The position numbers and the translations under genes are program-made. Positions 9,654 through 48,223 of a DNA stretch of 48,251 bases are shown in pieces. How positions within the stretch are numbered: the first letter of the stretch is position 1; each line of letters begins with the position of its first letter. The stretch is from a virus. Its lineage: Duplodnaviria; Caudoviricetes. The notes below the pieces were generated by a model. The model had not been told where the DNA came from. It saw only the letters and a program-made list of their open reading frames with translations, and searched no databases. The DNA is taken from positions 1 through 48,251 of IMG/VR virus record IMGVR_UViG_3300027373_000174; one strand, given 5' to 3'.

Positions 9654-11330
9654 CTAATCGGGGAGCCACCCTTTACAATCGGACGAAATCTGTCCTGTAG
9701 CGGTTAACGCCTCGCTTGATAAGCGGGGCGTTTCTGCGTTTATAGGAGCGTTTTCCGCAGGGGTTGCCGTTTCCTGCGCCGAGGTTGCCTTCTGCGGGCT
9801 TTCTATATGCATCTTTATCTCAATCCTGCTGTCATACACCACAATCTCCCGTATCAGCGACCGCAGCAGGTCTTTTTGAGCCGCCGGAGCCGCTTCGTCC
9901 AAGTGCCGCATGGCGAAACGGATTCGATTCTGCAATAATTGCCCCGAGTTGGCTGATAATTGCGCGGACTGGCGTTGGGCGGAGAGCTTTTCAAGTTTTT
10001 CCTCCGTTTGCGCTATTTGCGCTTCCAGTTCGGCGAACTTCTCCTTGAAGGCCATGCCCTTGGGGATGTCTCCCGCCATTACCAAATCCAACAGGCGTTT
10101 CGACTCGACCCGCACCGCTTCCAGTTTTTCCTCCTCCGCCCGCATGGCTACCTCGGTCTTATCCAGCTTCATCTGCGATTCCATCATCGCGTCGCCAATG
10201 GCCTTAATCAGGACTTCCTGGTCCGCCGAGGCCTTTTTGAAGTATTCAATTACAGCGTTGTCGAAAGCCGTGGCGGATATGGCCTCGGGCTTACAGCCTA
10301 AGCCCTGCTTACCCCTGCCGCAGACATAGTAGTAGAACTGCTTCCCGGTCTGTCCAGTGCAGGAGACGCTGATATAATGGCTTCCGCACTTCCCGCATCG
10401 AATCAGGCCAGCCAGCAGGTACTCATATGTTTTGGGACGCTTCCCCCAAAAGCGATGCCCCGGCAATTTGGCGGTCAGATACTTGTTGGCCTTTTCCCAA
10501 AGCGCGGGGTCCACTATGCCCTGATGCAATCCCTTGTGCAACTCGTCGTTGTACTGCACATAGCCCTTGTAGAACGGGCTCTTGAGAATGTTTGAAATGC
10601 TTTGCCTGAGCCATACCTTGCCAGCGGGCGACTTTATTCCGCTCGCCATGAGGACATGCCCGATTTCGGTAAGCGACTTGTTTTGCGCCGCCAATTCCCA
10701 GATGGGAAGCAGCTTGGGGGCAATTTCCTCGTTCACCACCAGCTTATGCGGCTGATGCCCGTTGGGCAAAGCCGGACCGTCATTTACGAGCTTATACCCA
10801 TACGGCACCCCGCCCCCCACCCAACGTCCCTGCCTTACACGCGCCAAAGCCGAAGCCTTGACGCGCTCGCCGGTCAGTTCCCTTTCAAAAGCCGACAATA
10901 ATCCCAATATCCCGATTACCACGCGCCCGATAGCCGTAGAGCTGTCGAGGTTTTCCCGCACGGACACAAAGTCGATATTCTTGTCCCTGAACAGGTCTAT
11001 CATGGCGTACAGGTCTCGCGGATTGCGGGTAAGCCGGTCCAGCCGGAAGAAGATGATGCCGTCGAACTCCCGCTTGCCGTTCACGGCCTGGAGTATGGCC
11101 TGTATGCCGGGACGGTTAAGGTCCTTACCTGAATACCCGTCGTCGTTGACCACGCCCTTGTCGCCGAAACACGCCAGCTCATGCCCGAACGCTTCCAGCA
11201 TGTTTTTGCAGTGGTACGACTGCGCATCCAGCGTGGTGAAATCGCCCTGCGCTTGGTCGTCGGTAGAACACCGAGTGTAAATAACATAACGCTTCTTTTC
11301 TGAAGAAGCCTTGCCGGTTAAAGTAGCCAA
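9654..11330 (-). CDS. Large serine recombinase (integrase), integrated-state short form
   Basis: YTRCST catalytic Ser, DDGYSG, RPG, RLDRLTR, recombinase domain, zinc ribbon (CGKC...YYYVC...C) and coiled coil. Likely TTG start at 11330 after GGAGG. Confidence 0.95.
   Translation of the reverse strand: MATLTGKASSEKKRYVIYTRCSTDDQAQGDFTTLDAQSYHCKNMLEAFGHELACFGDKGVVNDDGYSGKDLNRPGIQAILQAVNGKREFDGIIFFRLDRLTRNPRDLYAMIDLFRDKNIDFVSVRENLDSSTAIGRVVIGILGLLSAFERELTGERVKASALARVRQGRWVGGGVPYGYKLVNDGPALPNGHQPHKLVVNEEIAPKLLPIWELAAQNKSLTEIGHVLMASGIKSPAGKVWLRQSISNILKSPFYKGYVQYNDELHKGLHQGIVDPALWEKANKYLTAKLPGHRFWGKRPKTYEYLLAGLIRCGKCGSHYISVSCTGQTGKQFYYYVCGRGKQGLGCKPEAISATAFDNAVIEYFKKASADQEVLIKAIGDAMMESQMKLDKTEVAMRAEEEKLEAVRVESKRLLDLVMAGDIPKGMAFKEKFAELEAQIAQTEEKLEKLSAQRQSAQLSANSGQLLQNRIRFAMRHLDEAAPAAQKDLLRSLIREIVVYDSRIEIKMHIESPQKATSAQETATPAENAPINAETPRLSSEALTATGQISSDCKGWLPD
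9660..9674. repeat. Left att core (15-bp direct repeat GGGGAGCCACCCTTT)
   Basis: Identical to 48162-48176; lies within the last codons of the serine recombinase. Confidence 0.85.
9706..9733 (+). terminator. Terminator-like hairpin just inside the left att
   Basis: AACGCCTCGCTT-GAT-AAGCGGGGCGTT followed by TCTGCGTTT. Confidence 0.45.
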
Positions 11331-11401
11331 ATGAGCCTCCCGTCCTCCCCACATGAACCATTTACATTCAATGTGGGCGGGACATCAAGTCTTTCCAATA
11401 C

Positions 11402-11463
11402 CCATAAATATCCCGTTATCGGCGATTATGCCGACACTTTTCGCCTTTGCGGGATATTTATGG
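11402..11463. promoter_or_regulatory. Back-to-back copies of motif CG(A/G)CA-N14-GGGATATTTATGG (putative phage-sigma promoters or operators)
   Basis: The plus copy (11431-11463) is 28/33 identical to 14386-14418. The minus copy (11434-11402) points at the integrase. 14-bp perfect inverted repeat CCATAAATATCCCG/CGGGATATTTATGG. Confidence 0.7.
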
Positions 11464-11475
11464 ACGGAGGGCTAT

Positions 11476-11649
11476 ATGGGCAAAATTCTAGACAAGAAGT
11501 TTGAACGGCGGTTCGGCGGGAGAATAGTTCTAATCTATGCTTCCAAAACCAATCACTTTTCAACAGCACAAAAACAAAATGTTATTATAGCCACGGCTTT
11601 TGAAACTATACAGCGTGATTTAATGCGGAAGAAGATGAGCACGAACTAA
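11476..11649 (+). CDS. Small basic protein (57 aa), candidate recombination directionality factor
   Basis: GGAGG RBS before the ATG, divergent from the integrase, preceded by the repeated motif. The 3' end overlaps DUF2971. Function inferred from position only. Confidence 0.5.
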   Translation: MGKILDKKFERRFGGRIVLIYASKTNHFSTAQKQNVIIATAFETIQRDLMRKKMSTN

Positions 11650-13762: not shown

Positions 13763-13795
13763 ACACACCTCTCAAAAATTAATGAGGAGGTGTGT
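13763..13795 (+). promoter_or_regulatory. Hairpin occluding the Shine-Dalgarno sequence of the sigma gene
   Basis: ACACACCTC (13763-71) pairs perfectly with GAGGTGTGT (13787-95), which overlaps the GAGGAGG SD; ATG at 13797. Confidence 0.6.
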
Positions 13796-13796
13796 A

Positions 13797-14384
13797 ATGC
13801 CAAGCCACAACAAGCAGTACGAAGGACTGTTCCAGCCGTGGGAAGTATCAATAGCCGTAACCGCAGTGTCCCGCCAGAAAAGGAAAAGCCATTGCCTAGA
13901 AAAGGAAGACTTCGACGACCTGTTGCACGAGTGCCTCTCTTGCTGGCAGCTCGCAAAATACAAGTATGACCCGGAATCAAATGTTCCGCCTCAAGCCTTT
14001 ATGCTTAAGGTGGTCCGCAACTGCATGCTCAAAATCGTGCGCGACCTGCTTAGGGACAAGCGGCGCGTCCTGTCGTCCGCCGACTCCCTGGACAGGCCTT
14101 TGACGGATAGAAGCCAAACGACACTGCTTGAAGCATGGGAAGCGAAGAATCCGACCGACAGCATCCATATAGAGGTAGAGCTCAAGCTGGATATCGAGGC
14201 GGTCCTGCCACGCCTTACCGCCCGGCAGAGGGAACTTTGCAGGCTGTTGCGCGATGAAGGCTTGAACCTCAAAGAGGCCAGTGCCGCCATGCAAATTCCC
14301 CGCGCAACGCTCTATGGCGACATGGAACGCATTCGGGCGGTGTTCGCCAAGGCAAAGCTGGGCGAATATCTTGGCGAAAAATAA
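13797..14384 (+). CDS. Phage-encoded sigma-70/ECF-like RNA polymerase sigma factor
   Basis: Region 2-like DFDDLLHE...YDP...AFMLKVVRN; region 4 HTH LTARQRELC...LNLKEASAAMQIPRATL. Confidence 0.85.
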   Translation: MPSHNKQYEGLFQPWEVSIAVTAVSRQKRKSHCLEKEDFDDLLHECLSCWQLAKYKYDPESNVPPQAFMLKVVRNCMLKIVRDLLRDKRRVLSSADSLDRPLTDRSQTTLLEAWEAKNPTDSIHIEVELKLDIEAVLPRLTARQRELCRLLRDEGLNLKEASAAMQIPRATLYGDMERIRAVFAKAKLGEYLGEK

Positions 14385-14385
14385 C

Positions 14386-14418
14386 CCGACACTTTTCCGA
14401 ATCGCGGGATATTTATGG
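14386..14418 (+). promoter_or_regulatory. Third copy of the repeated motif, upstream of the replication operon
   Basis: CCGACACTTTTC-N6-GCGGGATATTTATGG immediately after the sigma stop codon and before the RBS of 14432. Confidence 0.7.
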
Positions 14419-14431
14419 TGCGGAGGAGACT

Positions 14432-14716
14432 ATGCATGAAATTTACATCTTCAAGTTCGGCAAGGGCGCCACCAAGGAATTTCTGGAGGCGCAGGTGACA
14501 CTGGCGGTAATAGCGGTGGAGTGCATGTCGGGCAAGGCGGCGGTACGCATCGGGTTCCGCTACGCAATAAAAAAGGAGAAGGACGCCGTGGTCATGGAGA
14601 CCGGCAATGCGGCGGGCGAAGCAATCGTGCGCGTTTTCACCGGCCTGCTCATCCGGGCTTTCGGCGAAACACGGTTCAAGGTGGAGCACAACCCCAAGGA
14701 GCCGCGCCATGACTGA
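14432..14716 (+). CDS. Hypothetical phage protein
   Basis: GGAGGAG RBS; GC3-rich codon usage; overlaps the next start. Confidence 0.75.
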   Translation: MHEIYIFKFGKGATKEFLEAQVTLAVIAVECMSGKAAVRIGFRYAIKKEKDAVVMETGNAAGEAIVRVFTGLLIRAFGETRFKVEHNPKEPRHD

Positions 14717-16121
14717 TATCCCCTTATATAGGCACCAGCGCGAGGCTGTGGCTTTCGCGGAAAGCGTCGGAGGCAACTGCGCGCTGTTCCATGAACCCGG
14801 CCTTGGCAAAACACGCACCAGCCTTGAGGTGTTCAGCCGTCTGCGCGAACACAATCCGCAACTGCGCCTATTGGTGGTTTGCCCCCTTTCGCTAGTCAAC
14901 GCCGCATGGGGCGAAGACATAAAACGGTTCACAGGCTTCACGTCCTCGGCGTTCAAGGAACTGAACGGGACTTCGCCGGACATAGTCGTCATCAACTACG
15001 AAGCCCTCATCTCCCGGCGGAACCTGCCGGTCATCAAACGCATGGTTGCGGCGCAGCCGTTCATGTGCGTGTTGGATGAAAGCTCGCGGCTGAAAAACAA
15101 CAAGAGCGTGACCACCAAGGTTTTGCTGGAGCTTGCTCCGTTTTTCAGACACAGGATTGTGGCCTCCGGCACGCCGATGCCCAACAGCGAACTGGAGCTT
15201 TGGGGGCAAATCAATTTCCTGCGCCCTGAGTATCTTTGCAAGTCGTTCTATGCTTTCCGCAACACCTACTTCCATCTGGAACGCAACGGGCAGAGGATGC
15301 GCCTCTCAGGCCAGTACGTCAGCAGGGAGTATATGCGCGAAATACTCAGTTCCGGCTGGCGGTACGCCATCACGGGCGAGAACCGGCAAAGGCTGATGGA
15401 GCGCATCCGCCCGCTCGCCAACTGGGTAAAGAAGGCCGACGCGCTGGATTTGCCCGAAAAGGTGGACGAAATCCGCGAGGTGGAACTTTCCCCCGAAGAA
15501 TGGGCGGCGTATGAGGACATGCGGAAATACCTCGTCGCGGAAATCAACGGCACCCAAGTCACGGCCCAAGTCGCGCTGGCGAAGCTGATGAAACTGCGGC
15601 AGGCGACCTCCGGCTTCTTCTATACGCAGGACGGCAAGGTCGTGGAAACGGGCAAGTCCAGCAAGATGAGGGAACTGGAAAACGCCATAGAGGAGCTTGG
15701 CAACCAGCCGGTCATTGTCTGGGTGCAGTTCCATCAGGAAGTGGAGGCTGTCCAGAAGCTGCTCTCCGGCAAATACGGCGCGGAGCAGGTTGTGACGCTC
15801 TATTCCGAAACGCCGGACCGGGACGAGTCCATCCGGCGGTTCAAGGCGGGTGAGGCGCGGTATCTGGTGGCTCATCCCAAGTCTGCTGGGCACGGCCTTA
15901 CATTTACCAATTGCTCGGCTATGGTGTTCTACAGCCTGGACTATTCCTATGAGACCCATGCGCAGGCGCGGGACCGCATCCACCGCATAGGACAGGCCCA
16001 TAGCTGCCTGTACATCTACCTGCTAGCCAACGACACCATAGACGGGCATCTGCTTAAAGTCTTGCAGAAAAAGCAGAGCCTTCAGGAGGCGGTCCATGCC
16101 CTTGTCAGAAACGAGGATTAA
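14709..16121 (+). CDS. SNF2-family helicase
   Basis: EPGLGKT, DESS, SGTP, GHGLT, QARDRIHRIGQ. Confidence 0.92.
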   Translation: MTDIPLYRHQREAVAFAESVGGNCALFHEPGLGKTRTSLEVFSRLREHNPQLRLLVVCPLSLVNAAWGEDIKRFTGFTSSAFKELNGTSPDIVVINYEALISRRNLPVIKRMVAAQPFMCVLDESSRLKNNKSVTTKVLLELAPFFRHRIVASGTPMPNSELELWGQINFLRPEYLCKSFYAFRNTYFHLERNGQRMRLSGQYVSREYMREILSSGWRYAITGENRQRLMERIRPLANWVKKADALDLPEKVDEIREVELSPEEWAAYEDMRKYLVAEINGTQVTAQVALAKLMKLRQATSGFFYTQDGKVVETGKSSKMRELENAIEELGNQPVIVWVQFHQEVEAVQKLLSGKYGAEQVVTLYSETPDRDESIRRFKAGEARYLVAHPKSAGHGLTFTNCSAMVFYSLDYSYETHAQARDRIHRIGQAHSCLYIYLLANDTIDGHLLKVLQKKQSLQEAVHALVRNED

Positions 16122-16401
16122 GGAGAAGGTCCTGGCCTTTCTCAAGGCCGAATATCCCAAAGCATGGGTATATAAGGCGGCGGACAGGTGGACGTCCGGC
16201 ATACCCGACCTACTGATGTGCGTGGATGGGCGGTTCGTGGCAATAGAGCTTAAGGCCGGGAAGAACCAGCCGACAAAAATCCAGAAGTATGTAATCGAAT
16301 CGATTTGCGCTTCCGGCGGACGGGCGACCGTCTGCCGGAGCGTGGAGGAAGTAAAAAACTTCATGAACGGAGGAAACTCAGATGGTGAGAATAGGCGATA
16401 A
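16096..16401 (+). CDS. VRR-NUC domain nuclease
   Basis: SE..I, GIPDL, AIELK, Q motif. Confidence 0.9.
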   Translation: MPLSETRIKEKVLAFLKAEYPKAWVYKAADRWTSGIPDLLMCVDGRFVAIELKAGKNQPTKIQKYVIESICASGGRATVCRSVEEVKNFMNGGNSDGENRR

Positions 16402-16546
16402 GGTGCTGGTCAAAGTCGAAGTGTTCAAGATTGTCGAAACGGAAAACGGCATATCTTACGGCGTAAAGCTCGCCGGGGAAGAGGACCACTACTGCAATAC
16501 CCTCGGGATAACCGACAGGCATATCATCTCTCTGACGGAGAGGTAA
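16382..16546 (+). CDS. Hypothetical protein (54 aa, absent from ORF track)
   Basis: GGAGG RBS; MVRIGDKVLVKVEVFKIVE...; fills the operon gap. Confidence 0.6.
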   Translation: MVRIGDKVLVKVEVFKIVETENGISYGVKLAGEEDHYCNTLGITDRHIISLTER

Positions 16547-16556
16547 AGGAGGCAAT

Positions 16557-16964
16557 ATGCCCGACGATAAAGTATGCGAAAAGGAACTGGTAGCGCGCTT
16601 CAGGGAAGCGAAAGAGCGACGGGACCACCACAAGAAGCAACTGGAGGAGTCCCAGCAGTCATACGAGGAGGCCGAAAGCCGGCTTATCGAGTATCTGGAA
16701 TCCAACTCCGCAACAGCCACCGCCACTTATGAGGGCATCGGCTACGCGCAGCTGCAAAAACCCCGGCTTTACGCCTCTTGCAGGCAGGAGGACACGCATA
16801 AGCTGTTCGACTATCTCAAGGAAAAGGACCGGGCCGACCTGATAAAGACCGGGGTCGCGCCGCAAAGCCTGTCCGGCTTCGTTTCGGAGTGCGTGGAAGG
16901 CGGCGAAACCGTGCCGGAGTTTATCAGCTACTACCTCAAGCCGTCATTGCGGCTTTACAAATAA
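16557..16964 (+). CDS. Phage coiled-coil protein of the replication module (gp33-like)
   Basis: AGGAGG RBS; N-terminal coiled coil; VAPQSLSGFV..E....PEFI pattern. Confidence 0.65.
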   Translation: MPDDKVCEKELVARFREAKERRDHHKKQLEESQQSYEEAESRLIEYLESNSATATATYEGIGYAQLQKPRLYASCRQEDTHKLFDYLKEKDRADLIKTGVAPQSLSGFVSECVEGGETVPEFISYYLKPSLRLYK

Positions 16965-16975
16965 GGAGCGTCACC

Positions 16976-17701
16976 ATGGCAAAAGACATAGCGGTACGAA
17001 AGAAACTGGCGGTTCAGTCATCCGCGCCCCAGCGCGGTTTCGAAGCGGGCGTTACGCAGGAGGACATCATCATCCCCCGCGCAAAGCTCATACAAGCCTT
17101 GTCGCCCGAACTGGCGCAGGGGCTGGAGGGCATAAAGGTCGGCTCAATCATCAACTCGCTGACCAAGGAACCTCTTCCCCAGGAATTCATCCCGGTGTTC
17201 ATGTTCAAGAACTTCATCCGCTTCAACCCGCGCGGCAAGGAAGACCCCAACTACGACGCGGATTTCGAGCCGGGAGCGGTAATCTGGCGGTCTGGCGATA
17301 TTGACGACGCCAAGGTCGCGGAGGCGGCGCGCTTCGGCCCCAACGGCGAAAAACCCGTGGCGACTGCGTTCCTGAACTTCTTCTCCTACTTCCCCGGCGT
17401 TCCCATGCCCGTCATAGTCAGCTTCTCCAAGACCGGCTACAAGACAGGCAAGCAGTTGCTCTCGCTGGCGCGGTTCTGCGGCGGGGACATGTTCAGCCGC
17501 AAGTACAGGCTGTACTCGCAGGCGGAGTCCAACAGCGTGGCGACCTACTGCGTGTTGAAGGTGGCCTCGGCGGGCAACGCCAGCCCTGACGAATACAAGG
17601 CCTGCGAAGCCCTGTGGCGCGACTTTTCCTCGAAGGCCAAGGACATACAGGTCCATGATGAGGAAGCCGCCGAGGAACAGCAGGATTCCCGGCCTTACTG
17701 A
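16976..17701 (+). CDS. Putative phage single-stranded DNA-binding protein
   Basis: DIIIPRAKLIQALSP motif, acidic tail ending ...DSRPY, position upstream of the primase. Confidence 0.55.
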   Translation: MAKDIAVRKKLAVQSSAPQRGFEAGVTQEDIIIPRAKLIQALSPELAQGLEGIKVGSIINSLTKEPLPQEFIPVFMFKNFIRFNPRGKEDPNYDADFEPGAVIWRSGDIDDAKVAEAARFGPNGEKPVATAFLNFFSYFPGVPMPVIVSFSKTGYKTGKQLLSLARFCGGDMFSRKYRLYSQAESNSVATYCVLKVASAGNASPDEYKACEALWRDFSSKAKDIQVHDEEAAEEQQDSRPY

Positions 17702-17706
17702 CCGGC

Positions 17707-17738
17707 AGGGGGCGGTGGAGAACCCGCCGCCCCCCCTT
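17707..17738 (+). terminator. GC-rich hairpin between the SSB-like gene and the primase
   Basis: GGGGGCGGTGG-AGAAC-CCGCCGCCCCC followed by a weak T tract. Confidence 0.35.
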
Positions 17739-17758
17739 CCACCCGATAGAAGGTGCAC

Positions 17759-19867
17759 ATGACGGAACACGCATTGGCTTATGCGGCAAGAGGATGGGCG
17801 GTGTTGCCCTGCAGGGGCAAGGTGCCGCTCACGCCGCACGGCTATAAAGACGCCTCGAAAGACGCCGAAGCGGTAAAGCGGCTGTTCGCAAATTGTCCGC
17901 AGGCAAATACAGGCATAGCCACCGGCAAGGTCTCCGGCATTTTCGTGCTGGACATAGACATCAAAAACGGCGCGGGCGGCGCGGAGTCGCTTACCGGCCT
18001 TGAGCGCGAGCACGTCCCTCTTCCCCCCACCGTGGAGGTTAAGACCTGTTCCGGCGGGCGGCACCTGTATTTCCGTTATCCCGAATCCGGCGTGGGCTGC
18101 AAGACCGGCATACGCAAGGGCATAGACATTCGCGGGGACGGCGGCTATGTTGTTGCCCCGCCAAGCGTGATTGACGGCAAATCCTACGAATGGACGAATG
18201 GCCCGGACACGCCGCTTGCCGACGCGCCGGACTGGCTGCTGGAGTTCATCTCCCCCAAGGGGAGCCAACCCGACCTCTCCGACAAGGACGCGCTTATCAC
18301 GCAGAACCGCAACAACACGCTGATGCTTATGGGCGTGAACCTGCGGAAGATGGGCCTTGAGCATGGCGAAATAGAAAAGAACCTCCAGTCCATCAATGCG
18401 GCGCGCTGTTCCCCGCCGCTGGACAAGGCCGAGGTTTCAAAAATAGCCAGAAGCGTGTCCCGCTACGACAAGGACGGCAAGCAGTCCGAGCCGCTTACGG
18501 ATACATGGAACGCCAGGTTCTTCTATGCGGGCTATGGCGGCGACATACGCTACTGCGACGCGCTTGGCGGCTGGTTTATCTGGGACGGCACCCGCTGGCG
18601 CAAGGATGAGAGCTTCCAAATCATGCGGCTGGCGCAGTCAGCCGTGCAGGACATGCGCTCTCGGGCCAAGGCCACGGACGACAAGGCATTGCTCAAGCAT
18701 GCCGCGCACTGCGAGGCCGAGTCCCGGCTCAAGGCGATGGTGAACCTTGTCCGTTGCGAGGACGGCATTACCGTCACGCCGGACACATTCGACAGCGACG
18801 TGTTCGTGCTCAACTGCCGCAACGGAACGCTGGATTTGCGGACAGGCGGACTGCGTCCGCACAATAAGGCCGATTACCTCACCAGAAGGCTGGAGCTGGA
18901 CTATAAAGCGGACGCGCAGTGCCCGGAGTGGCTCAAGTTCATGGACAGCATATTCCTCGGCGACAAGGAAATCATCGGCTTCATGCAAAAGGCCGTGGGA
19001 TACTCACTGTCCGGCTCAATGAAAGAGCAATGCGTGTTCATCCTCTACGGCGTGGGCATGAACGGCAAGTCCACGTTCCTCAAGCACATCTACCGGATTC
19101 TTGGCGAGTACGCCATGAATACCCCCGCCACCACGCTGATGGAGAAGTACGGAGAGTCCATCCCCAACGATGTGGCGCGGCTTAAGGGAGCGCGGTTTGT
19201 CACCTCCATAGAGTCCGGCAAGGGCCGGGCGCTGGCTGAGGCGCAAATCAAGCAGCTTACGGGTGACGACCCCATCTCGGCCAGGTTCCTGCACAGGGAG
19301 TTCTTCGACTTCTTCGCCACGTTCAAAATCTTCCTGGCGACGAACCACAAGCCGAACATATCCGGCACGGACAAGGGCATCTGGCGCAGGCTGATGACCA
19401 TCCCGTTCGAGAAGGTCATAACACCGGAGGAGCGTGACCCCGCGCTGGACGACAAGCTCGCAAAGGAATATGCGGGAATACTGGCATGGGCGGCAGAAGG
19501 ATTCCGGCAGTGGCAGAAAGATGGCCTTTGCGCGCCGGACAAAATCGCGCGGGCTACGAATGAGTACCGCGAGGAATCCGATATCATCGGCAACTTTATC
19601 ACGGAGAATTGCGTCTTGGGCGATGGGCAGCAAGTCTCAGCCGGTGAAATCCTCAAAGCCATACAGCAATGGGCCAAGGACGGCGGCATGCGCTCCATAA
19701 AGCGCACCGAGTTCATTGACTACATGCAGAAGCGCGGCTTCAAGCGCGACAGGATTACTGGCGGCAAGACTTGCTGGTTCGGAATAACGCTGAAAGGGAA
19801 CGAGCAGGAGACGTTGCCTATGGGTAGAGACTATGAGCCCGAAGACCCGGATGTAAGGCCGTTTTAA
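17759..19867 (+). CDS. Bifunctional primase-polymerase + PriCT + D5/P4-family SF3 helicase
   Basis: VLDID, GGRHLYF, DIRGDGGYVVAPPS; RNNTL PriCT region; GVGMNGKST Walker A; IKQLTGDD, ATNHKP, WRR. Confidence 0.95.
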   Translation: MTEHALAYAARGWAVLPCRGKVPLTPHGYKDASKDAEAVKRLFANCPQANTGIATGKVSGIFVLDIDIKNGAGGAESLTGLEREHVPLPPTVEVKTCSGGRHLYFRYPESGVGCKTGIRKGIDIRGDGGYVVAPPSVIDGKSYEWTNGPDTPLADAPDWLLEFISPKGSQPDLSDKDALITQNRNNTLMLMGVNLRKMGLEHGEIEKNLQSINAARCSPPLDKAEVSKIARSVSRYDKDGKQSEPLTDTWNARFFYAGYGGDIRYCDALGGWFIWDGTRWRKDESFQIMRLAQSAVQDMRSRAKATDDKALLKHAAHCEAESRLKAMVNLVRCEDGITVTPDTFDSDVFVLNCRNGTLDLRTGGLRPHNKADYLTRRLELDYKADAQCPEWLKFMDSIFLGDKEIIGFMQKAVGYSLSGSMKEQCVFILYGVGMNGKSTFLKHIYRILGEYAMNTPATTLMEKYGESIPNDVARLKGARFVTSIESGKGRALAEAQIKQLTGDDPISARFLHREFFDFFATFKIFLATNHKPNISGTDKGIWRRLMTIPFEKVITPEERDPALDDKLAKEYAGILAWAAEGFRQWQKDGLCAPDKIARATNEYREESDIIGNFITENCVLGDGQQVSAGEILKAIQQWAKDGGMRSIKRTEFIDYMQKRGFKRDRITGGKTCWFGITLKGNEQETLPMGRDYEPEDPDVRPF

Positions 19868-19905
19868 GCGTTTCCGGCCTGTGCGGGGCAGTTTTGCGCC
19901 CCTTG

Positions 19906-20091
19906 AGTGACGGTAGTGACGATTCAGTGACAAAACTTTCAAGGCATTATCACTGCGGTTTGTATTGGAGGAAGCCCCAAAAAGTGACGGCAGTGACGAA
20001 ACTTCTATCTTTAGCTCAATTAGGAAAGAAAATAAGAAAACAAATATAGAGGAAAACCCAAAAAGGACAATCGTCACTAAGTTCCGTCACT
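19906..20091. repeat. Putative replication origin with AGTGAC iterons
   Basis: AGTGAC at 19906, 19915, 19926, 19983 and 19992, inverted GTCACT at 20073 and 20086, flanking an A-rich tract, directly after the primase gene. Confidence 0.7.
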
Positions 20092-20097
20092 AAAGGC

Positions 20098-20361
20098 ATG
20101 GAGATGACTATGGACAAACATGACGCATATGAACGGCTATTAAAACGCAAGCTGGACGGCCTACGCTGGCTCAGGAAGAAGGAAACTCTGGGCAAGGACA
20201 CATCGCGGGACCGCGCAGTCTTTGAGGCCGAGGTCCTCAACCCGCTTGCGGCATTGCGGCACTCCCTCCAGCCGGAGGAAGCCGTAGGATGGGACAGGGT
20301 TGAGCATATCGCCGAATTGTTCAACGGCAGAATCATTCTGGAAAACGGAGGCAAGATATGA
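20098..20361 (+). CDS. Hypothetical phage protein
   Basis: Operon continuity; ATGA overlap with the next gene. Confidence 0.6.
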   Translation: MEMTMDKHDAYERLLKRKLDGLRWLRKKETLGKDTSRDRAVFEAEVLNPLAALRHSLQPEEAVGWDRVEHIAELFNGRIILENGGKI

Positions 20362-20543
20362 AAAGGAAAAAGCAAAGCAGGAAGCCGAGCATTCGACTCT
20401 CCACGCTGATGCGTGACAAAGAAATTATGAAGCGGCTCAAGCAGGGCAAAGCCCCGAAAGAAGTCTCTTACGAGATGGGACTATCGTCAGTGTGGGTAGT
20501 TTATGATTTTACAAGAAGACAAAAAGGAAATGCAAACACTTAG
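20358..20543 (+). CDS. Small HTH protein, possible late-gene regulator
   Basis: GGAGG RBS; RDKEI...GKAPKEVSYEMGLSSVWVVY HTH pattern; last gene of the early operon. Confidence 0.6.
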   Translation: MKRKKQSRKPSIRLSTLMRDKEIMKRLKQGKAPKEVSYEMGLSSVWVVYDFTRRQKGNANT

Positions 20544-20998
20544 CGTTCTTTACGATGCTGTGCGTGCGCTTCAAAACATATTTTAGCTGCTTTTAGTTTT
20601 TCAATAAGTTCCGATTTGTTTGCATAGGGATAAATTCCGCATCCCTTAATATTTGAAATTCGGTCTTCGATAATTTGTCGCGAAATAATTTCTGTTCGTT
20701 CAGAACAATATATGGCATATGGTTTTAAAGCGACAGCTAAAGCCATGCCATACTCCAAAATCACATTAGCATTGATGCCATTGCTAGATAATCGCTTGTC
20801 CCCAGTCAAATCGACGATAACATATACATCTTTTATTTGTTCCAAAACTGTTTGATATGCAATTCTGTCTGTATCGTGGCTATCGGGCAGTATTTCATCA
20901 CCAAATTTTATATCCCAACCATCAAAAACAGTTTTTACAGCATCCTTAAGGGATAATGGTCTCCATGCGCCCGTTTCGAAGGACACAAAAAGTTTCAT
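20540..20998 (-). CDS. TIR/nucleoside 2-deoxyribosyltransferase-like domain protein (moron)
   Basis: LFVSF...VIVDLT...NANVILEYGMALA...KP, a flavodoxin-like signature with the catalytic Glu; AT-rich. Confidence 0.7.
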   Translation of the reverse strand: MKLFVSFETGAWRPLSLKDAVKTVFDGWDIKFGDEILPDSHDTDRIAYQTVLEQIKDVYVIVDLTGDKRLSSNGINANVILEYGMALAVALKPYAIYCSERTEIISRQIIEDRISNIKGCGIYPYANKSELIEKLKAAKICFEAHAQHRKER

Positions 20999-21552
20999 AA
21001 TTCGTAATGTCCTTCCAAGAAAAGGAAATCATTTGATGCTATGCGGAAATCCGATGGATTGTTGTGGACAATCGTTTTTATTTGTTCTTGGGATATGCCT
21101 GTTTCATCCGCAAGTAATCTTATGCTCATTGGTACGGCACCATCACTGAACACATTATGTGCTGAAATCATCCAGTATATTTTTAACTTTTCTTCAGGAC
21201 TTGTATCATCATTCTCCATCAATGTCCGTAGTTGTTCATAGTTTGCTTCGGTAAACAACTCGAGAGGGCGTTGCTTCCTTTGAGTTGCAGACAACCATCG
21301 GGTCATACCACCTTCACGCAATCTGTTTTCTAGATGTTTTTTGAATGCAGGGAAAAGTCTATATGCAATTGTCTCAGGGAAACGCGGTTTTTCAGGAAAC
21401 ACATACTGAATCAGACTGTCTGCAATAGCAACTATAACCTCACATTGGTAGGGTTCATGAAAGTCGAAAATAAATGAAGTGCCCCCTGAGAACAAATCTG
21501 GGAGACTGATATACTTATACACCGTTCCATCTAGTGCTCGATATTCGGGCAT
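20995..21552 (-). CDS. Hypothetical protein with C-terminal wHTH-like segment (moron)
   Basis: SIRLLADETGISQEQIKTIV; ATGA-coupled to the TIR/NDT-like gene. Confidence 0.65.
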   Translation of the reverse strand: MPEYRALDGTVYKYISLPDLFSGGTSFIFDFHEPYQCEVIVAIADSLIQYVFPEKPRFPETIAYRLFPAFKKHLENRLREGGMTRWLSATQRKQRPLELFTEANYEQLRTLMENDDTSPEEKLKIYWMISAHNVFSDGAVPMSIRLLADETGISQEQIKTIVHNNPSDFRIASNDFLFLEGHYEL

Positions 21553-21558
21553 ATCGCA

Positions 21559-21587
21559 AGAATACCTTTAGATATTACATTTGTCAA
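21559..21587 (-). promoter_or_regulatory. Near-consensus sigma70 promoter, probably giving a leaderless mRNA
   Basis: TTGACA-17 bp-TATTCT; the ATG begins 7 nt after the -10 box; no SD sequence. Confidence 0.7.
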
Positions 21588-21648
21588 CTTCCAAAATTTT
21601 CCAAAGTAAAACTCGTGACTTAGAAAGGGCCATACGCTAAACTATAAG

Positions 21649-21900: not shown

Positions 21901-21920
21901 CCTTTTCGCCGGAGGGATAT

Positions 21921-24004: not shown

Positions 24005-24009
24005 GGCAT

Positions 24010-36961: not shown

Positions 36962-36971
36962 AAGAGGGCTT

Positions 36972-37211
36972 ATGGGATTACCGAACAACATACAAAACGG
37001 CGACGTGCCTGACGCCGACAAGCTGATGGCCAACTTCAATTACCTCGACAGCAAGAGCGGCGTGCGCGTGGATACCTTCGACAACTTGGTTGCCAGCGCG
37101 GCCTCGGCACCGGCCCGAACGTTCCTGTGCTACGCGTCGGACCTGGCGCAATTGTTCTTCTACACCGGCGATACAAGCGTCGGTAATGGCGGTTTCAAGC
37201 TGATAGCTTAG
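36972..37211 (+). CDS. Small tail-associated protein
   Basis: LPNNIQNG..DADKLMANFNYL resembles fibre N-terminal anchor segments. Confidence 0.6.
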   Translation: MGLPNNIQNGDVPDADKLMANFNYLDSKSGVRVDTFDNLVASAASAPARTFLCYASDLAQLFFYTGDTSVGNGGFKLIA

Positions 37212-37220
37212 GAGGCTTCA

Positions 37221-40079
37221 ATGAAAAAGATACTTGCCGTAGTCCTGCTGATGCTGTACCCCGCGCGCATATACGCCGCGTCGCCCTATTACGACCTTTC
37301 CATGTCGACAGCGATGGGGAAGGCTACCATGCGGCTGTCCGGCCCGATAAGGCTGTCAGCCAACGCGTCTTCGTATGCCTCGCCCGGCATGCAGCTGGCG
37401 GCTGACGCGAACGACGCCTATATCGATTATGGCGGTATTCTGGGACGGCTGTTTTTCCGCTCTGGCATAGAGGGCCCCTCGCGCGTCACGTTTGATCCCT
37501 TGGGAAACATATCCGCCACGGCTTATTATGGCGACGGCTCGCACCTGACCGGCCTCGGGTCAGTGATTACGGGCAATATAACAGCGTCCTCGAACACCTT
37601 TACGGGCATAAACACCTTCCGTAATATCGGCGCGGGCTATTCGCCGCACCCGGATGCGCCCGTCAGCGTGTTCAACACCTATGTTTCAACGTATACCTCC
37701 GGCATAGCCAATGCCGTGGTTGGCGTGCTGTCAGCCGCCGAAAGTTACATCCACCCGGCGTTTGGCCTGTTCGGCCTTGCCAACAACGTATCCGACAACA
37801 GCGCGGGCGACCTTTACGGCGTCTATGGGAAAACGCGCAAGACCGGCGTCGGCGGCGGGATAACGCACGCCTATGGCACCTATGGCGATTCTTCGGAGAA
37901 CAATACCCACAATTACGGGGCCTATGGACATGCGGGCAGCCCTTACGGTTCGGGCAACAACTACGGTGTGTATGGCGTGGCGGACGGCGCTAGCGGCCTG
38001 AAGAACAATTACGGCGTGTACGGCAAAGCGCTGAACGGGTTCAACAACTACGCGGGCTACTTCGAGGGGAACACCTACGTCAGCGGTGAGCTTGGCGTGG
38101 GCTCCAACGACCTGCTGGTAAGCGGCGGCAAGGTCGGCATAGGTACGGTGGCGATGGTTTCAAAGCTGAACGTCGCGGGAACCATACGCTCGACCGAGGG
38201 CGGCTTCGTGTTCCCCGACGGCACCACGCAGGCCAGCGCCGGGATAAGCGCAGGCGCAGACCTGACCTTCACCGGCAACGACTATTTCACCAACTACGTC
38301 ACGTTGGCGAAAAATGGGAACTATACCGTCAATATCGGCACGGCGGGGTATACGGGCTACGCTGGCGACGGGACCACGGACGTATACCTTAACGGCAACC
38401 TGAACTTCATGAGCGCGCAGCCGCTTATAACGGCATGGAACAACGCCAATATCCGGCTCGGCAGCTCGCTGGAGACAACCGACGGATACTTGGGCCTTGG
38501 GCCGCAGTGGAACGGCATCCACGTGTTCAGCCCGCGCAAGCTTACCGTGGACGGTACCGCTACGCTCGGGACGGTCGAGGCCAGTACCATCGCGGTAGCG
38601 AACACGCTGACCGGCTCAACGGCAACATTCACGGGCACGCTTACGGCAGGCACCATATACGGCAACCTGCCCGGCTATGTGCCCTATACGGGCGCTACCG
38701 GCACGGTAAACCTTAACGATAACGATATCTACGTCGGCAACCTGCATAACCACGGGCATATCTATGTCACGCGCGCCTTCGGGCCCACGTTGTTCCTGAA
38801 TTCGGAACGTACTGGGCTCGATAGCTGGATGGGTATAGACTTCACTTCGGCTGGCAATAACAACCATTCCATCTACAGCTTCCAGCAGAGCAACCCGTAC
38901 AACCCGTCGCGGCTGACCTTCCTCGGCAGGCAGGACGCGGCCAGCTTCCTGTTCTGTGGCGGCAATTGCGGCGTACAGAACCCCACGCCGGGGCTGGTTA
39001 TAACCTCCGGCAACAAGGTCGGCATAGGGACAGCCAACCCGTCAATGGCGCTGGACGTTATCGGCATCATCAAAAGCAGCGGCAGCACCAATTCGCTGAT
39101 GTTCGGCGACCGAGTCAATTCAGCAAATAGCTGGGAATGGTACTCATCGGATGGCACGGCTGGGCTCTATAAAAACCACAACACGGCGGGGACGGTGTTA
39201 TCCATATCGCCCAGCGGCAGGCTTGGCGTCGGGATAGCCACACCGGCAAGCGTATTGCATGTTCAAGGCAGCGATGGGCGACAACTGACGCTGCGTAGTT
39301 CGAACGGATACCAGACCGGCATGCAGTTCCTTGATTCCGGCGGGAGCGTCATCGCCAACATAGACGCGGGGACGACAAGCAACGTGGGGCTTCGTTTCGA
39401 CAGCGGGAAGTTTTCATTCGTGACCGGGCAGGTCGGCATAGGGACAACGGCACCCGCGCATCTTCTGGATGTATATGGCTCTGGAGCCGCTGTTCGCGTG
39501 AATGGGAATGCCAGCGCCTCGCATATGTACATGGCAAAGTCCGGCACCAATTACGCCCAGTTCGCGGTGGACGGAACGGACACATATTTGGACTACGGCG
39601 GTTCGACGGGACGCTTATTATTCCGCGCTGGCGTCGAAGGGACTATCAAGGCCGTCATGGGCACGGGTGGTGAGCTTACATCCGCATCGCTTGCCGGAAC
39701 GGGCAATCGCGCGGTATATAGCGATTCCACCGGACAGCTGACCAATTCATCGTCGGATGCCCGGCTAAAGAAAGATGTCGTTTCGCTTTCGACCGCCACG
39801 GCACTCGGGCAGACGCTTCAGTTGAGGCCGGTCGCTTTCCACTGGGACACTTCGCTAAAGCGCGCGGAAAGCCTTGGCAACCAGCAGGAACTCGGCCTCA
39901 TCGCGCAGGAGGTAGAGGGCATAGTCCCGCAGGTGGTTGGAGAGAACGCCGACGGCTACAAATCGCTGGACTACGCCAAGCTGGTGCCCGTCCTTATCGG
40001 CGCGGTACAGGCGCAGCAAGCGATGATTGACGGACTGAAGGCACGGATAGCGGCGCTTGACGCTGCGGGAGGCAATTGA
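37221..40079 (+). CDS. Trimeric fibre with C-terminal peptidase S74 intramolecular chaperone and N-terminal signal-peptide-like sequence
   Basis: VGIGT and GVYG repeats; SSDARLKKD, LRPV.F.W, GLIAQEVE, LDYAKL; N-terminus MKKILAVVLLMLYPARIYA. Confidence 0.85.
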   Translation: MKKILAVVLLMLYPARIYAASPYYDLSMSTAMGKATMRLSGPIRLSANASSYASPGMQLAADANDAYIDYGGILGRLFFRSGIEGPSRVTFDPLGNISATAYYGDGSHLTGLGSVITGNITASSNTFTGINTFRNIGAGYSPHPDAPVSVFNTYVSTYTSGIANAVVGVLSAAESYIHPAFGLFGLANNVSDNSAGDLYGVYGKTRKTGVGGGITHAYGTYGDSSENNTHNYGAYGHAGSPYGSGNNYGVYGVADGASGLKNNYGVYGKALNGFNNYAGYFEGNTYVSGELGVGSNDLLVSGGKVGIGTVAMVSKLNVAGTIRSTEGGFVFPDGTTQASAGISAGADLTFTGNDYFTNYVTLAKNGNYTVNIGTAGYTGYAGDGTTDVYLNGNLNFMSAQPLITAWNNANIRLGSSLETTDGYLGLGPQWNGIHVFSPRKLTVDGTATLGTVEASTIAVANTLTGSTATFTGTLTAGTIYGNLPGYVPYTGATGTVNLNDNDIYVGNLHNHGHIYVTRAFGPTLFLNSERTGLDSWMGIDFTSAGNNNHSIYSFQQSNPYNPSRLTFLGRQDAASFLFCGGNCGVQNPTPGLVITSGNKVGIGTANPSMALDVIGIIKSSGSTNSLMFGDRVNSANSWEWYSSDGTAGLYKNHNTAGTVLSISPSGRLGVGIATPASVLHVQGSDGRQLTLRSSNGYQTGMQFLDSGGSVIANIDAGTTSNVGLRFDSGKFSFVTGQVGIGTTAPAHLLDVYGSGAAVRVNGNASASHMYMAKSGTNYAQFAVDGTDTYLDYGGSTGRLLFRAGVEGTIKAVMGTGGELTSASLAGTGNRAVYSDSTGQLTNSSSDARLKKDVVSLSTATALGQTLQLRPVAFHWDTSLKRAESLGNQQELGLIAQEVEGIVPQVVGENADGYKSLDYAKLVPVLIGAVQAQQAMIDGLKARIAALDAAGGN

Positions 40080-40081
40080 CC

Positions 40082-40342
40082 ATGGGCAAGATAGACGAGA
40101 TATTGGAGCGCCTCGCGCGCATAGAGGCCAAGCAGGACACGCACCTCGCGGCTTACGCGACCGACAAGGCTGGCAGCGACGGGCGCATAGCCAAGCTGGA
40201 GCATACGGTAAACGGCAACGGGCAGGTCGGCCTTGCCGAGGAGATGCGCAACATGAAAATGCGCATTTCATGGATAGTGGGCGGCATAACGCTGGCAGCT
40301 AACGCGGCGTTCCAGCTAGCCCTCAAGTGGGGTGGTAAATGA
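40082..40342 (+). CDS. Putative holin/antiholin (coiled coil + single C-terminal TM)
   Basis: ERLARIEAK, C-terminal hydrophobic helix, immediately before the endolysin. Confidence 0.6.
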   Translation: MGKIDEILERLARIEAKQDTHLAAYATDKAGSDGRIAKLEHTVNGNGQVGLAEEMRNMKMRISWIVGGITLAANAAFQLALKWGGK

Positions 40343-40779
40343 ACGACTTCAACCTGACGGAGCATTTCACGTTCCTGGAACTGACCAAGACCGATAAAGC
40401 AGAGTTCCAAGAGCTGAACCGCCGCAAGGCGCTGTGCTACACCGGCAGCCTGACCGAGCTATGCCGCACGGTGCTGGAGCCGATACGCCTGCACTATGGC
40501 AAGCAGGTCATCGTGCATTCGGGGTTCCGCTGTTACGAACTGAATAAGGCTTTAAGCGGCAACCCCGCCAGCCAGCACATGATTGGCGAGGCGGCGGACT
40601 TCCACGTTGAGGGCGTGGCGCTTGAGGAGGCCTTTAACTGGCTGTGGAAAGAGTCAGGCATTCCGTTCGGGCAGCTTATAGACGAGCGTCGTGGTGGTGA
40701 CCGTTGGTTGCACACCAGCACTGGTGGCAAGCGGGAGGTTCTTGCCTTCCAGAACGGGGCATATGCACGGCTGGCTTGA
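40339..40779 (+). CDS. Endolysin, peptidase M15A family
   Basis: HFTFLEL, LEPIR, SGFRC..LN, SQHMIGEAADF, WLH. Confidence 0.9.
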   Translation: MNDFNLTEHFTFLELTKTDKAEFQELNRRKALCYTGSLTELCRTVLEPIRLHYGKQVIVHSGFRCYELNKALSGNPASQHMIGEAADFHVEGVALEEAFNWLWKESGIPFGQLIDERRGGDRWLHTSTGGKREVLAFQNGAYARLA

Positions 40780-45508: not shown

Positions 45509-46606
45509 ATGTCCAAGCAACGCTCGACCGGTTTCGACACTTTTATAAGCCTCGCAGACTCCGAACTTCTTCGCAAATACCTTCAAAAGGTAAAGGCCCT
45601 TCCAGAGGGCGATAACAGTCCCATAACGATAGAATCCATTCACAAGATTCTCTCTGATATGGAAGACCGAACCAAAGCCATTGATATTGAAGACGATATT
45701 CTGTGCTTTCAGGAGATTGCCGAAAGAGGCGTCTACGACCTCCACGCAATCGCAAGACACTACAAAATTGAGGTAAAATCTGACGAGGCTCCTCAGAATA
45801 TTGCCCTCAAGGTGTTCCTGCACCAGGACCAGAATGCCTTCGATACGCTTTATGATTCCTATGTTTGCAAAACCTGCTACGCCAAGCTTACATACTACCC
45901 CGTAAAAGCTGAAACAGTGGATTGTGGCGCGGAGGCATTCGAAGCTTTCAAGCAAGAGATTTCGGAAACCATAAAAGAGCAAAAGCCAGACGAATGTCTT
46001 ATCCGGCATCACGACTACAAGGGCGGGCAGTATATATTGATAACCCGGCAAGACAAAGCACATTCCTACCGCACCTTGGAAGGCAAACGCGTTAGGCCTA
46101 GGCTTTATCGCCCAGCGAAAGAAGATGCCATATATTACGACCAAAAGCGCGGGGTGATTGGCGTAAGCTCCGGCTTTCGGGGCTCGGCAACTAAAAAGCT
46201 GTGTGTCCGGGCATTCGCAAAAGCAGTATTAAAGTTGCCGACTGTCGATGAAAAGGTTTTTTCCAGTGAAAATGGCCTAATGGCTTTGGCACCATTAAAA
46301 ACCTCAGCGTTTTATGAACCGACAAAACAAGTTGCCAAGATAGAACTGATTTGCGCGGAATATTCTCATAAAGGCACTGCGGATATCTGCATATCCTCGG
46401 AAGATGTCCGCGCTACCGTTAAGGAATTGGCATTCCCTGAAACAGACTGTGAGTTCGTTTCCGCGAAAGTGCGTTTTTCCATAACTGGGCAATCACGGAC
46501 GCAAACTGTTCATATCAACAAAAAAGGTTTTACTGCCCTAAAGAATCATGCGGCACGGGAAATAATCGAGGCATATCTGCGTGAACAAAAAGTTGTCCTT
46601 TTCTGA
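45509..46606 (+). CDS. Hypothetical protein (YRPxxxDxxxYD motif)
   Basis: 365 aa, AAGGGGG RBS, overlaps the next gene. Confidence 0.75.
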   Translation: MSKQRSTGFDTFISLADSELLRKYLQKVKALPEGDNSPITIESIHKILSDMEDRTKAIDIEDDILCFQEIAERGVYDLHAIARHYKIEVKSDEAPQNIALKVFLHQDQNAFDTLYDSYVCKTCYAKLTYYPVKAETVDCGAEAFEAFKQEISETIKEQKPDECLIRHHDYKGGQYILITRQDKAHSYRTLEGKRVRPRLYRPAKEDAIYYDQKRGVIGVSSGFRGSATKKLCVRAFAKAVLKLPTVDEKVFSSENGLMALAPLKTSAFYEPTKQVAKIELICAEYSHKGTADICISSEDVRATVKELAFPETDCEFVSAKVRFSITGQSRTQTVHINKKGFTALKNHAAREIIEAYLREQKVVLF

Positions 46607-47765
46607 CAAATTGCTCCAATTCGTGCTATTGGAACTGGAAAAAGCGCCTGCCAGGCTGTTCTCCCGGCACGAGTTGGAGTGCTGTGACGCCTCCGCTTTC
46701 CCTCGGCTAACAGACGCCGGACTATTAAAAAGAGCTCCATACTCTGACCCGGAAGGCCGCATGGGCTTCAATTCTGAGGGTGTGCCATGCCGTGTGCGGA
46801 AAATTGGCACTGAATGGAACCTCGTGCCAACAACTGGCGATTTGGACGAGATGGAGCCTGTCTCCACATCTGTATTGGAACTATGGCGATTTAATCTCCC
46901 GGGATTTGTTCAGATAATCAAGCAGGCAAATAGCCTTTCTTTGCCCGTATCTGAAATTACTGACAGGCTGCATTACATAGGGGAATTCAAAACGGGAGAC
47001 GCCAATATTGCAGTTTGCCTCGGATTATTTTCTTCAGACACACACATTGAACGACATGCCGGACTGAAGATGGAGCTGGCATGCGACAAAGCCCTCCTGC
47101 TCACGCCTTCATACGAAATACAGGTACCCAAATTACGCGCTGACTTTGAGCGGAATGGAATTTTTTGCCGTACATTTGCAATGGCGATGCGTACCAACGA
47201 CCTTGCCATTGATTTCAGCGATCTTCGCGCTCCTGCCCCCATGCCGGAAACCAAGTTCGTAGTACCCCCTCTTACCACTGCGGAGCAAAAGTACCGCAAG
47301 ACATATCATCGTCGTGACACAATCAAATTTACCGACAAGAAGGATGGTGCACGAGCATATATTATAGAAGTCAATGGGGGCGAGACTTCTCTCAATTATC
47401 CAGAATTGCTTGTCCTTATCCGCCTCGCAAGCCAAAGCAAACAGGGGACATTGGAGGGGTGGGTGCCGGTGAAAGAAATGGCAGAGGCCGGGATTGTTAA
47501 TTCGGAAGACAAAAAAGCCGTGGGCCGTGCAGTCTCTGTTATACTTGCGGCAATGAAGCCGTATCTGGAAAAAAGCAGCGTGCCTATCATTGAGAACCAA
47601 AGGCGTGCGGGGAAATACCGTCTTTCCACAGTGCCTACTCGCATAAAAACGCCAGACACGCGCTGGCTGGGAAATATGTCTGCGAAGATTCTGAAAGAAG
47701 TAGTAGCGGAACGTTCCAAACGGATTCAACGAATATCGAATGCGCGGGCAAAGTCTAGACCATAG
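46581..47765 (+). CDS. Hypothetical protein with C-terminal OmpR-like winged helix
   Basis: LNYPELLVLIRLA...IIENQRRAGKYRL; GTG start; stop codon abuts the stop of the opposite ORF. Confidence 0.7.
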   Translation: MNKKLSFSDKLLQFVLLELEKAPARLFSRHELECCDASAFPRLTDAGLLKRAPYSDPEGRMGFNSEGVPCRVRKIGTEWNLVPTTGDLDEMEPVSTSVLELWRFNLPGFVQIIKQANSLSLPVSEITDRLHYIGEFKTGDANIAVCLGLFSSDTHIERHAGLKMELACDKALLLTPSYEIQVPKLRADFERNGIFCRTFAMAMRTNDLAIDFSDLRAPAPMPETKFVVPPLTTAEQKYRKTYHRRDTIKFTDKKDGARAYIIEVNGGETSLNYPELLVLIRLASQSKQGTLEGWVPVKEMAEAGIVNSEDKKAVGRAVSVILAAMKPYLEKSSVPIIENQRRAGKYRLSTVPTRIKTPDTRWLGNMSAKILKEVVAERSKRIQRISNARAKSRP

Positions 47766-48176
47766 CTATTGGAGTCCCCCCATCCCAAGAGTCTTTGTTC
47801 GTCCGGCCATACGCAATAATTCCTTGCCAGAAAACCTTTTCAACTCCTCCCGTTCATTGCATACCGCCATATGGGCTACAAATTCTGGTGGCATAGCTTT
47901 CAAAATTCTCAACAACTGAGAAATACGGGCTTTCGTAATGCCGAACTCCTCTGCAGCGTGGCGATAGCTTCGGCTTGGGTCTGAGAACAGGAAATCCTGG
48001 ACTTTCAACGCCTCTGCCACGATATTCTTGGGCATTGGCTGGACATGTGGTGCTTTCGGCGGCAATGGCTCGCCTAAAACGATTCTGGGCCCTCTGGTGC
48101 GATATCGGTACATATCGACGAGAAGTTGGGCAAATTCTGGATTATGTTTCCTGTCGCGGCAGGGGAGCCACCCTTT
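47766..48176 (-). CDS. Stranded C-terminal HTH domain of the integrase, joined on excision
   Basis: Same reading frame through the att core (KGWLP); SYRHAAEEFGITKARISQLLRIL HTH. The track's ATG (48200) lies outside the att and lacks a clear SD. Confidence 0.75.
   Translation of the reverse strand, partial: KGWLPCRDRKHNPEFAQLLVDMYRYRTRGPRIVLGEPLPPKAPHVQPMPKNIVAEALKVQDFLFSDPSRSYRHAAEEFGITKARISQLLRILKAMPPEFVAHMAVCNEREELKRFSGKELLRMAGRTKTLGMGGLQ
48162..48176. repeat. Right att core (15-bp direct repeat)
   Basis: Identical to 9660-9674. Confidence 0.85.
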
Positions 48177-48192
48177 TCTAAAGATAGAACTT

Positions 48193-48223
48193 CTGCCCAT
48201 TTAGCGTCCGGCGCTATGGGCAG
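48193..48223 (+). terminator. Hairpin in the flank just outside the right att
   Basis: CTGCCCA-TT-TAGCG-TCCGG-CGCTA-TGGGCAG followed by AT-rich sequence. Confidence 0.4.

Follow-up and report, generated by a model that had tools for sequence, protein, structure and literature searches.

A stretch of 48,251 nucleotides (nt) from a tailed virus (Duplodnaviria; Caudoviricetes; IMG/VR virus record IMGVR_UViG_3300027373_000174; hereafter the window) contains a prophage of ~38.5 kb whose attachment (att) site lies within its own serine-integrase gene. We conclude with high confidence that integration splits this gene, the integrated prophage encoding a short integrase at one end and carrying the 3' part of the gene, a tail of 131 codons, at the other. 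This layout is real, conserved and unusual, and it is partly anticipated in print.

Results

The att core is read in frame at both ends of the prophage

Two exact copies of a 15-nt repeat, the left and right att cores, are present in the window (Table 1), and identity between their flanks stops at both edges. In a shuffle control, two matches to the 15-mer were obtained in 0 of 100 shuffles, even with two mismatches permitted. An earlier note on this DNA, made from the sequence alone, had reported that both copies translate as K-G-W-L-P in the same minus-strand frame, and we confirmed this; the left copy continues into D and a stop codon, and the right copy into the 131 open codons of the tail. 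The tail stop (47766) adjoins the stop of the convergent gene at 46581-47765 with zero gap, as the note had also stated. The two copies enclose a tailed prophage that has genes for terminase, portal, capsid, tail and lysis proteins.

The integrase starts at a TTG codon at 11330, with GGAGG ahead of it, giving a short form of 558 amino acids (aa; database protein P0001). In-silico excision added the 131 codons with no stop, producing 688 aa from the TTG at 11330 or 696 aa from an ATG at 11354; the two product lengths given earlier, and the claim that two state-dependent isoforms are encoded, were thus borne out. The 688-aa form would be encoded only on unintegrated phage DNA or at a tandem junction between elements of the same lineage. 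Domain searches with the integrase matched PF00239, PF07508 and PF13408, and in the family alignment S22 is nearly invariant and four cysteines are invariant. In a structure model, a coiled coil (helices 371-418 and 426-460) is inserted in the zinc-ribbon domain, and residues 513-558 of the short form are predicted to be disordered, forming a C-terminal linker of ~45 residues. The catalytic, recombinase, zinc-ribbon and coiled-coil regions are all intact in the short form, and there was no second serine recombinase among the 49 open reading frames (ORFs) scanned in the window. The closest labelled relatives of the integrase come from Elusimicrobiales (76%) and Omnitrophota bins. Among cultured phages, the best integrase matches fall below 30% identity and the tail found no match.

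ARAGORN and Rfam scans found no tRNA in the window. On a second contig (run X1, possibly the source sample of this DNA; 7 differences over 87 nt), a tRNA T-arm immediately precedes the right core, which is followed by the same flank; this T-arm closely matches the tRNA-Asn of related loci. The right end is therefore a genuine junction and the core represents the 3' end of tRNA-Asn, which upholds the earlier placement of the prophage ends at the 15-nt cores. The left core is a junction to a neighbouring element, not to the tRNA itself. Inverted symmetry in attP (4-11 of 30 matches) was unconvincing. A 364-nt contig of another study (run X3, record 23) crosses the left junction (window 9628-9756) with 4 differences, suggesting that the same arrangement occurs elsewhere.

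The prophage is probably flanked by elements of a second integrase lineage

Judging from both flanks, the prophage is most likely an internal member of a tandem array. The right flank contains the 3' end of a gene for a serine integrase of a second, "C-type" lineage, which crosses the same core in the frame G-S-P, and the left flank, read in the C-type frame, resembles the start of a C-type arm. Since the flanks belong to other elements, the D-stop ending that the earlier note took as the integrated C-terminus is an accident of the tandem neighbour; relatives integrated directly at a tRNA end instead in an antisense-tRNA peptide of variable length. The C-type lineage (L191, L192, L274-L280) uses the same tRNA ends as targets, reading them in a different frame, and includes fused forms of its own (P0256, P0265), in which a Pfam ParB helix-turn-helix (HTH) domain lies in the C-type frame. 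Mixed-lineage junctions are out of frame, a natural control which shows that the frame is lineage-specific and not imposed by the tRNA.

Three other assignments of the flanks and tail were rejected. The left arm is not a detectable decayed copy of the tail (E >0.3), and the right flank reads as the 3' end of a C-type integrase gene, not as plain host DNA. The tail is not part of the right-hand C-type integrase, as it is carried by 0 of 5 close C-type loci that had not first been found via the tail, and the C-type lineage has a tail of its own. The left neighbour island (window 484-9553) has a low GC content and encodes a type I restriction R subunit, a DUF4268 protein, a helicase and an Mrr-like nuclease.

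The shared frame is conserved across the family and its tRNA targets

The integrase query fetched 130 loci, from which 80 distinct integrases with an antisense tRNA and a readable T-loop were kept and one more was dropped. tRNA nucleotides 76-74 form an in-frame integrase codon in 78 of the 80, TGG in 74, so the frame across att is conserved in homologues, as the earlier note required of its claim. This Trp codon, complementary to CCA, is conserved also where no CCA is encoded on the host side. The number of residues after it varies across the family, from 3 to hundreds. Six tRNA types (Asn, Gln, His, Ser, Glu and Arg) are targeted by the frame-keeping integrases, and a quick tree of 73 integrases implied at least nine changes of target, with one label assigned from tandem context.

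The far end was searched for in 48 genomes, representing 50 of 80 genome loci and picked mostly for long contigs, and 34 of the 48 contained a match to the extension, as we call the tail of a relative. Of 13 tRNA-anchored pairs with both ends on one contig, the automatic test placed 11 in frame; in the remaining two the shared sequence is limited to nt 73-71, and these were in frame by eye. This anchored test replaced an unanchored core search, in which 11 of 15 pairs were in frame with chance matches included. Shared cores in relatives span 3-10 nt, with tRNA nt 73-71 as the minimum, against 15 nt in the window. All 31 distinct full-length extensions carry the core codons in their own frame, with spacing that differs by whole codons, and dN/dS values of 0.12-0.47 (43 non-independent pairs, pS up to 0.55) indicate purifying selection on the extension. 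No match to the tail was found in 251 genomes of the class around G042, in a search that had no positive control. At four loci (L084, L088, L091 and L012), an antisense tRNA-Asn-like sequence past the integrase diverges after the anticodon stem and was missed by ARAGORN; these may be intron-containing tRNAs.

The tail is predicted to fold as a ParB/KorB-like DNA-binding domain

The tail was modelled with a pLDDT of 92.5 as a beta-hairpin followed by a helical HTH domain. KorB was the best hit in a fold comparison (Z 7.0, rmsd 3.0, 73 aligned), ParB appeared in the top rows of a Foldseek search (E >0.08), and the Atlas matched the tail to HTH_ParB clusters (0.93), while PF17762 was detected in 3 of 44 tail-family members (E up to 0.1). 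KorB, ParB, SopB and VirB domains thus lead three tail searches with modest scores throughout, and we describe the predicted domain as resembling ParB/KorB DNA-binding domains, a likeness and not a membership. The N-terminal CTPase domain of ParB and KorB is absent from the 131-aa tail, which comprises only the hairpin and the helical domain. A viral fold library gave no match at E 0.001, and 86 relatives of the tail were found among 1.84 billion representatives.

Elements at tRNA-Ser have an extension of only ~50-63 codons, which keeps the beta-hairpin part and has no HTH (e.g. L163, L164, L175, L179). Tail type tracks the tRNA target in 11 of 11 end pairs, and integrase and tail identities correlate over the same number of pairs (Mantel rho 0.61, p 0.0002, pairs not independent). 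The tail recognition helix goes with the tRNA target, not with integrase ancestry. An operator search found nothing tail-specific; only palindromes of the tRNA-Gln clade exceeded shuffles.

The earlier note held that the tail has no clear translation start. There is indeed no conserved start and no upstream Shine-Dalgarno motif: among 23 stand-alone extensions, 8 have an upstream start and none of these has a Shine-Dalgarno motif, compared with 11 of 24 window genes. The claim needs correcting insofar as an in-frame ATG is present at 48200, eight codons upstream of the right core; it has no Shine-Dalgarno motif and falls within the neighbour's integrase gene, which is read there in a different frame.

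Natural fusions with a readable context lie at tandem junctions

Integrase and tail are naturally fused in 6 of 120 homologues and, in metagenomes, in 7 of 75 distinct copies (from 90 loci). On the complete Ca. Velamenicoccus chromosome, two tandem lambda-like prophages of ~48 kb lie at tRNA-Gln (G001:C1:1839177-1935300; L013, L037, L161), and the outer integrase is fused in frame to the tail of the inner element, giving 699 open codons. In this double lysogen an intact long form is encoded at the junction and a short one at the tRNA; excision is thus not forced by either form on its own. The long form is accordingly not confined to the circle, as had been supposed. The earlier note had suggested looking for homologues with the domain fused in free phage contigs and split in prophages; natural fusions exist, and their readable contexts are all tandem junctions.

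No attP joint was detected among the contigs of run X1; as contigs drop rare variants, this does not count as evidence that the joint is absent. The 38 virus records searched are all labelled "linear" or "provirus" and contain only split copies or tandem junctions, and nine fused loci have no terminal repeats. A weak search that used the tail as query recovered no long proteins. Viral contigs scanned with single tail proteins yielded nothing or orphan copies only, and an exact motif scan of viral contigs gave 0 matches.

A small divergent gene accompanies the integrase

Relatives of a 57-aa gene divergent from the integrase are present in 89 of the 119 loci that have enough upstream DNA. A C-terminal motif found in 70 of these 89 members is missing from the window copy and its nearest relative. 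By its size, position and conservation, the 57-aa protein is a candidate for a separate recombination directionality factor (RDF). A strong sigma-70-like promoter motif with conserved flanks lies upstream of the integrases of relatives (CTTGAC in 82 of 125 loci, e.g. L004, L018, L054), and the window copy is degenerate. A strong hairpin within the integrase linker codons is likely to serve as terminator for the (restored) tRNA upstream.

Table 1. Coordinates of the features in the window.
Feature	Position	Strand	Remarks
End of left neighbour island, outside the prophage	9600..9659	-	short C-type arm (G-S-P...R-T-F-S), other frame
Large serine integrase, short form, 558 aa	9654..11330	-	Resolvase, Recombinase and zinc-ribbon domains
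Left att core	9660..9674	+	tRNA-Asn 3' end (acceptor strand + CCA) plus 6 nt; minus strand gives integrase codons K-G-W-L-P
Strong hairpin, 12-bp inner stem	9700..9737	+	tRNA sense, inside integrase linker codons; z below -2 in 91% of 75 relatives vs 5% of control windows
57-aa gene, RDF candidate	11476..11649	+	divergent from integrase; conserved family
Phage body	13782..40779	+	sigma-70-like regulator, SNF2 helicase, primase, terminase, portal, protease-capsid, tail, holins, peptidase M15
394-aa gene	46581..47765	+	no known family; convergent with tail; homologues beside tail in other elements
Stranded 3' part of integrase gene, 131 codons	47766..48161	-	predicted beta-hairpin and ParB/KorB-like HTH domain
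Right att core	48162..48176	+	on second contig, tRNA T-arm directly before core, same flank behind
3' end of C-type serine integrase gene, outside the prophage	48177..48251	-	crosses the same core in G-S-P frame

Low-GC cargo is present within the prophage at two places: beside the integrase (11606-13638; DUF2971 and PD-(D/E)XK genes) and near the right end (41338-47765; cytosine methylase, Vsr, HNH and two genes of no assigned family).

Discussion

We propose that the integrase gene is split at tRNA-Asn, that the long form integrates with the aid of its tail, and that the short form excises together with the 57-aa protein as RDF, a model to which we give about an even chance of being right. 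The split, the conserved frame, the selection on the tail and the natural fusions are directly shown: attP lies in frame inside the 3' part of the gene, and integration at tRNA-Asn leaves a 558-aa enzyme with every catalytic and att-binding domain while stranding the 131-codon tail. The 688-aa form would likely be the integration form, and its predicted ParB-type domain would likely give an extra DNA contact through the long flexible linker. The tail may help integration through target capture or synapsis and be dispensable afterwards, and excision would be carried out by the short form with the separately encoded 57-aa protein. Infecting phage DNA has an intact attP and can therefore specify no integrase other than the long form, which must then be competent for integration. 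The tail is also unlikely to act as a fused RDF, since RDFs fused to an integrase C-terminus block attP x attB recombination (PMC12286644), which an infecting phage needs. For the family as a whole, we tentatively suggest an integration-only isoform with an extra ParB-type arm that helps to read the target tRNA gene, retargeting being achieved by tail swaps with tandem neighbours; this wider proposal is rather doubtful.

Several observations weigh against the proposed division of labour. All fusions with a readable context (G001, G016, L229/L230) are tandem junctions, and no circular or attP-state record of the window phage or its relatives was found. The window copy of the 57-aa protein is shortened, and the protein had no PHROG match, no Atlas cluster match and no match to a known RDF. 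No recurring palindromic parS-like site was found near the element ends or the promoter. The window's own extension is too distant for any dN/dS pair, and an ATG at codon 16-24 is present in 19 of 23 stand-alone extensions. Since tRNA-Ser elements without the HTH still occur integrated, this domain is not a universal requirement. Linkage to the P arm could by itself account for the association of tail type with target, without function.

The tail could instead regulate transcription: a long form expressed from the circle would repress the promoter of the integrase, or the small divergent gene, and would thereby signal that the phage is not integrated. Repressor domains (KorB, VirB, SorC, DeoR) at the top of the fold list, the conserved sigma-70-like promoter upstream of relatives and the documented autorepression of tyrosine integrases (PMC2951348) are consistent with this, but the tRNA-Ser clade, which has no HTH, conserves the promoter motif equally well, and the operator search gave no tail-specific site; we consider such a role unlikely. 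Somewhat less probable again is a suicide or stability switch, in which the short form is inactive or unstable, the tail beta-hairpin completes the zinc-ribbon domain, and excision needs the long form of a superinfecting phage or tandem neighbour. The first ~38 tail residues, with the hairpin, are the sole part retained in all clades, and the same idea has been voiced for dsiB (PMC3146451) and serves as a model for archaeal suicidal integrases (PMC8371274). Arguing against it, the short form keeps all of its catalytic, recombinase, zinc-ribbon and coiled-coil regions ahead of a 45-residue disordered linker, and single lysogens conserve both the promoter and the small partner gene.

The earlier note had favoured a self-contained directionality switch, the tail acting as built-in RDF or anti-RDF with no partner. 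Engineered C-terminal RDF fusions do switch direction (PMC12286644, PMC11722253), and the linker is long enough. However, a separate small gene is conserved in the usual RDF position, so such a switch is not needed, and the Ca. Velamenicoccus double lysogen, with the long form at the junction and the short form at the tRNA of a complete chromosome, stably encodes the long form, which makes the tail improbable as a directionality switch on its own. We consider it least probable of all that translation from an internal Met yields the HTH as a small protein in its own right, with the fusion a by-product. The frequent ATG near the start of the extension favours this idea, as do an internal start with a Shine-Dalgarno motif in 6 of 23 copies and the fact that gene callers annotate such ORFs, but the Met is not confined to one alignment column and is missing in four copies, the spacing from core to HTH always shifts by whole codons, and two lineages each keep their own frame.

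In Myxococcus phage Mx8, attP reportedly lies within the gene of the tyrosine integrase IntP/IntX, and integration is said to replace the C-terminus and change the activity of the enzyme. A printed precedent for a serine integrase, where the earlier note had known of no characterised example, is DsiB of the ssrA-specific genomic islands of Dehalococcoides (McMurdie et al. 2011, PMC3146451), a serine recombinase whose 3' end always overlaps attL, with the stop beyond the island. Its authors speculated that full function is limited to the circular form or to an island whose neighbour supplies the 3' fragment. DsiB shares with our integrase its large serine recombinase type, the 3' end overlapping attL and the tandem arrays. 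It differs in targeting tmRNA, where the window integrase targets tRNA-Asn and its family the six tRNA types listed above; the carrier here is a tailed prophage, no DsiA-like second recombinase is present among the 49 ORFs, and the available part of that paper identifies no stranded domain or conserved frame.

The "suicidal" integrases of SSV1, pTN3 and pT26-2 likewise have att in the integrase gene, a tRNA target, partition on integration and possible chimeric integrases (PMC8371274; archaeal suicidal tyrosine integrases are also a precedent in PMC5861418). Those enzymes are tyrosine recombinases, described as exclusive to archaea, and in them the catalytic part is separated (PMC8371274), whereas the window encodes a serine recombinase whose catalytic and att-binding domains stay together. 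In the integration-dependent immunity of mycobacteriophage BPs, attP also lies in a coding sequence, and viral and prophage forms differ through removal of a C-terminal part; there a repressor gene loses a degradation tag (PMC3694055), and here an integrase loses a folded 131-aa domain. The domain order, coiled coil and RDF-sized small neighbour gene resemble those of SPbeta SprA/SprB, phiC31 and Bxb1 (PMC11722253, PMC12286644), but the low identity to cultured-phage integrases and the unmatched tail set our integrase apart from canonical large serine integrases. In the full-text literature, with few subscription papers covered, no serine integrase was described as losing a folded HTH domain on integration. 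The word "tRNA" is absent from the main text of a large survey of large serine recombinases, as available, and its supplements may bear on novelty (PMC10083194).

Genome engineering relies heavily on serine integrases, which are usually cloned on the basis of prophage annotations. For this family, cloning in this way would yield a truncated enzyme with a spurious antisense-tRNA tail, and activity screens may have tested the wrong isoform. The design with att inside the integrase gene, called archaeal and tyrosine-specific in PMC8371274, now also covers serine integrases of bacteria that carry a folded accessory domain, and the 2011 speculation on dsiB becomes directly testable, with two defined isoforms and one partner. 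If the wider proposal for the family is true, state sensing and retargeting would be combined in one gene across a widespread class of tRNA-targeting serine integrases.

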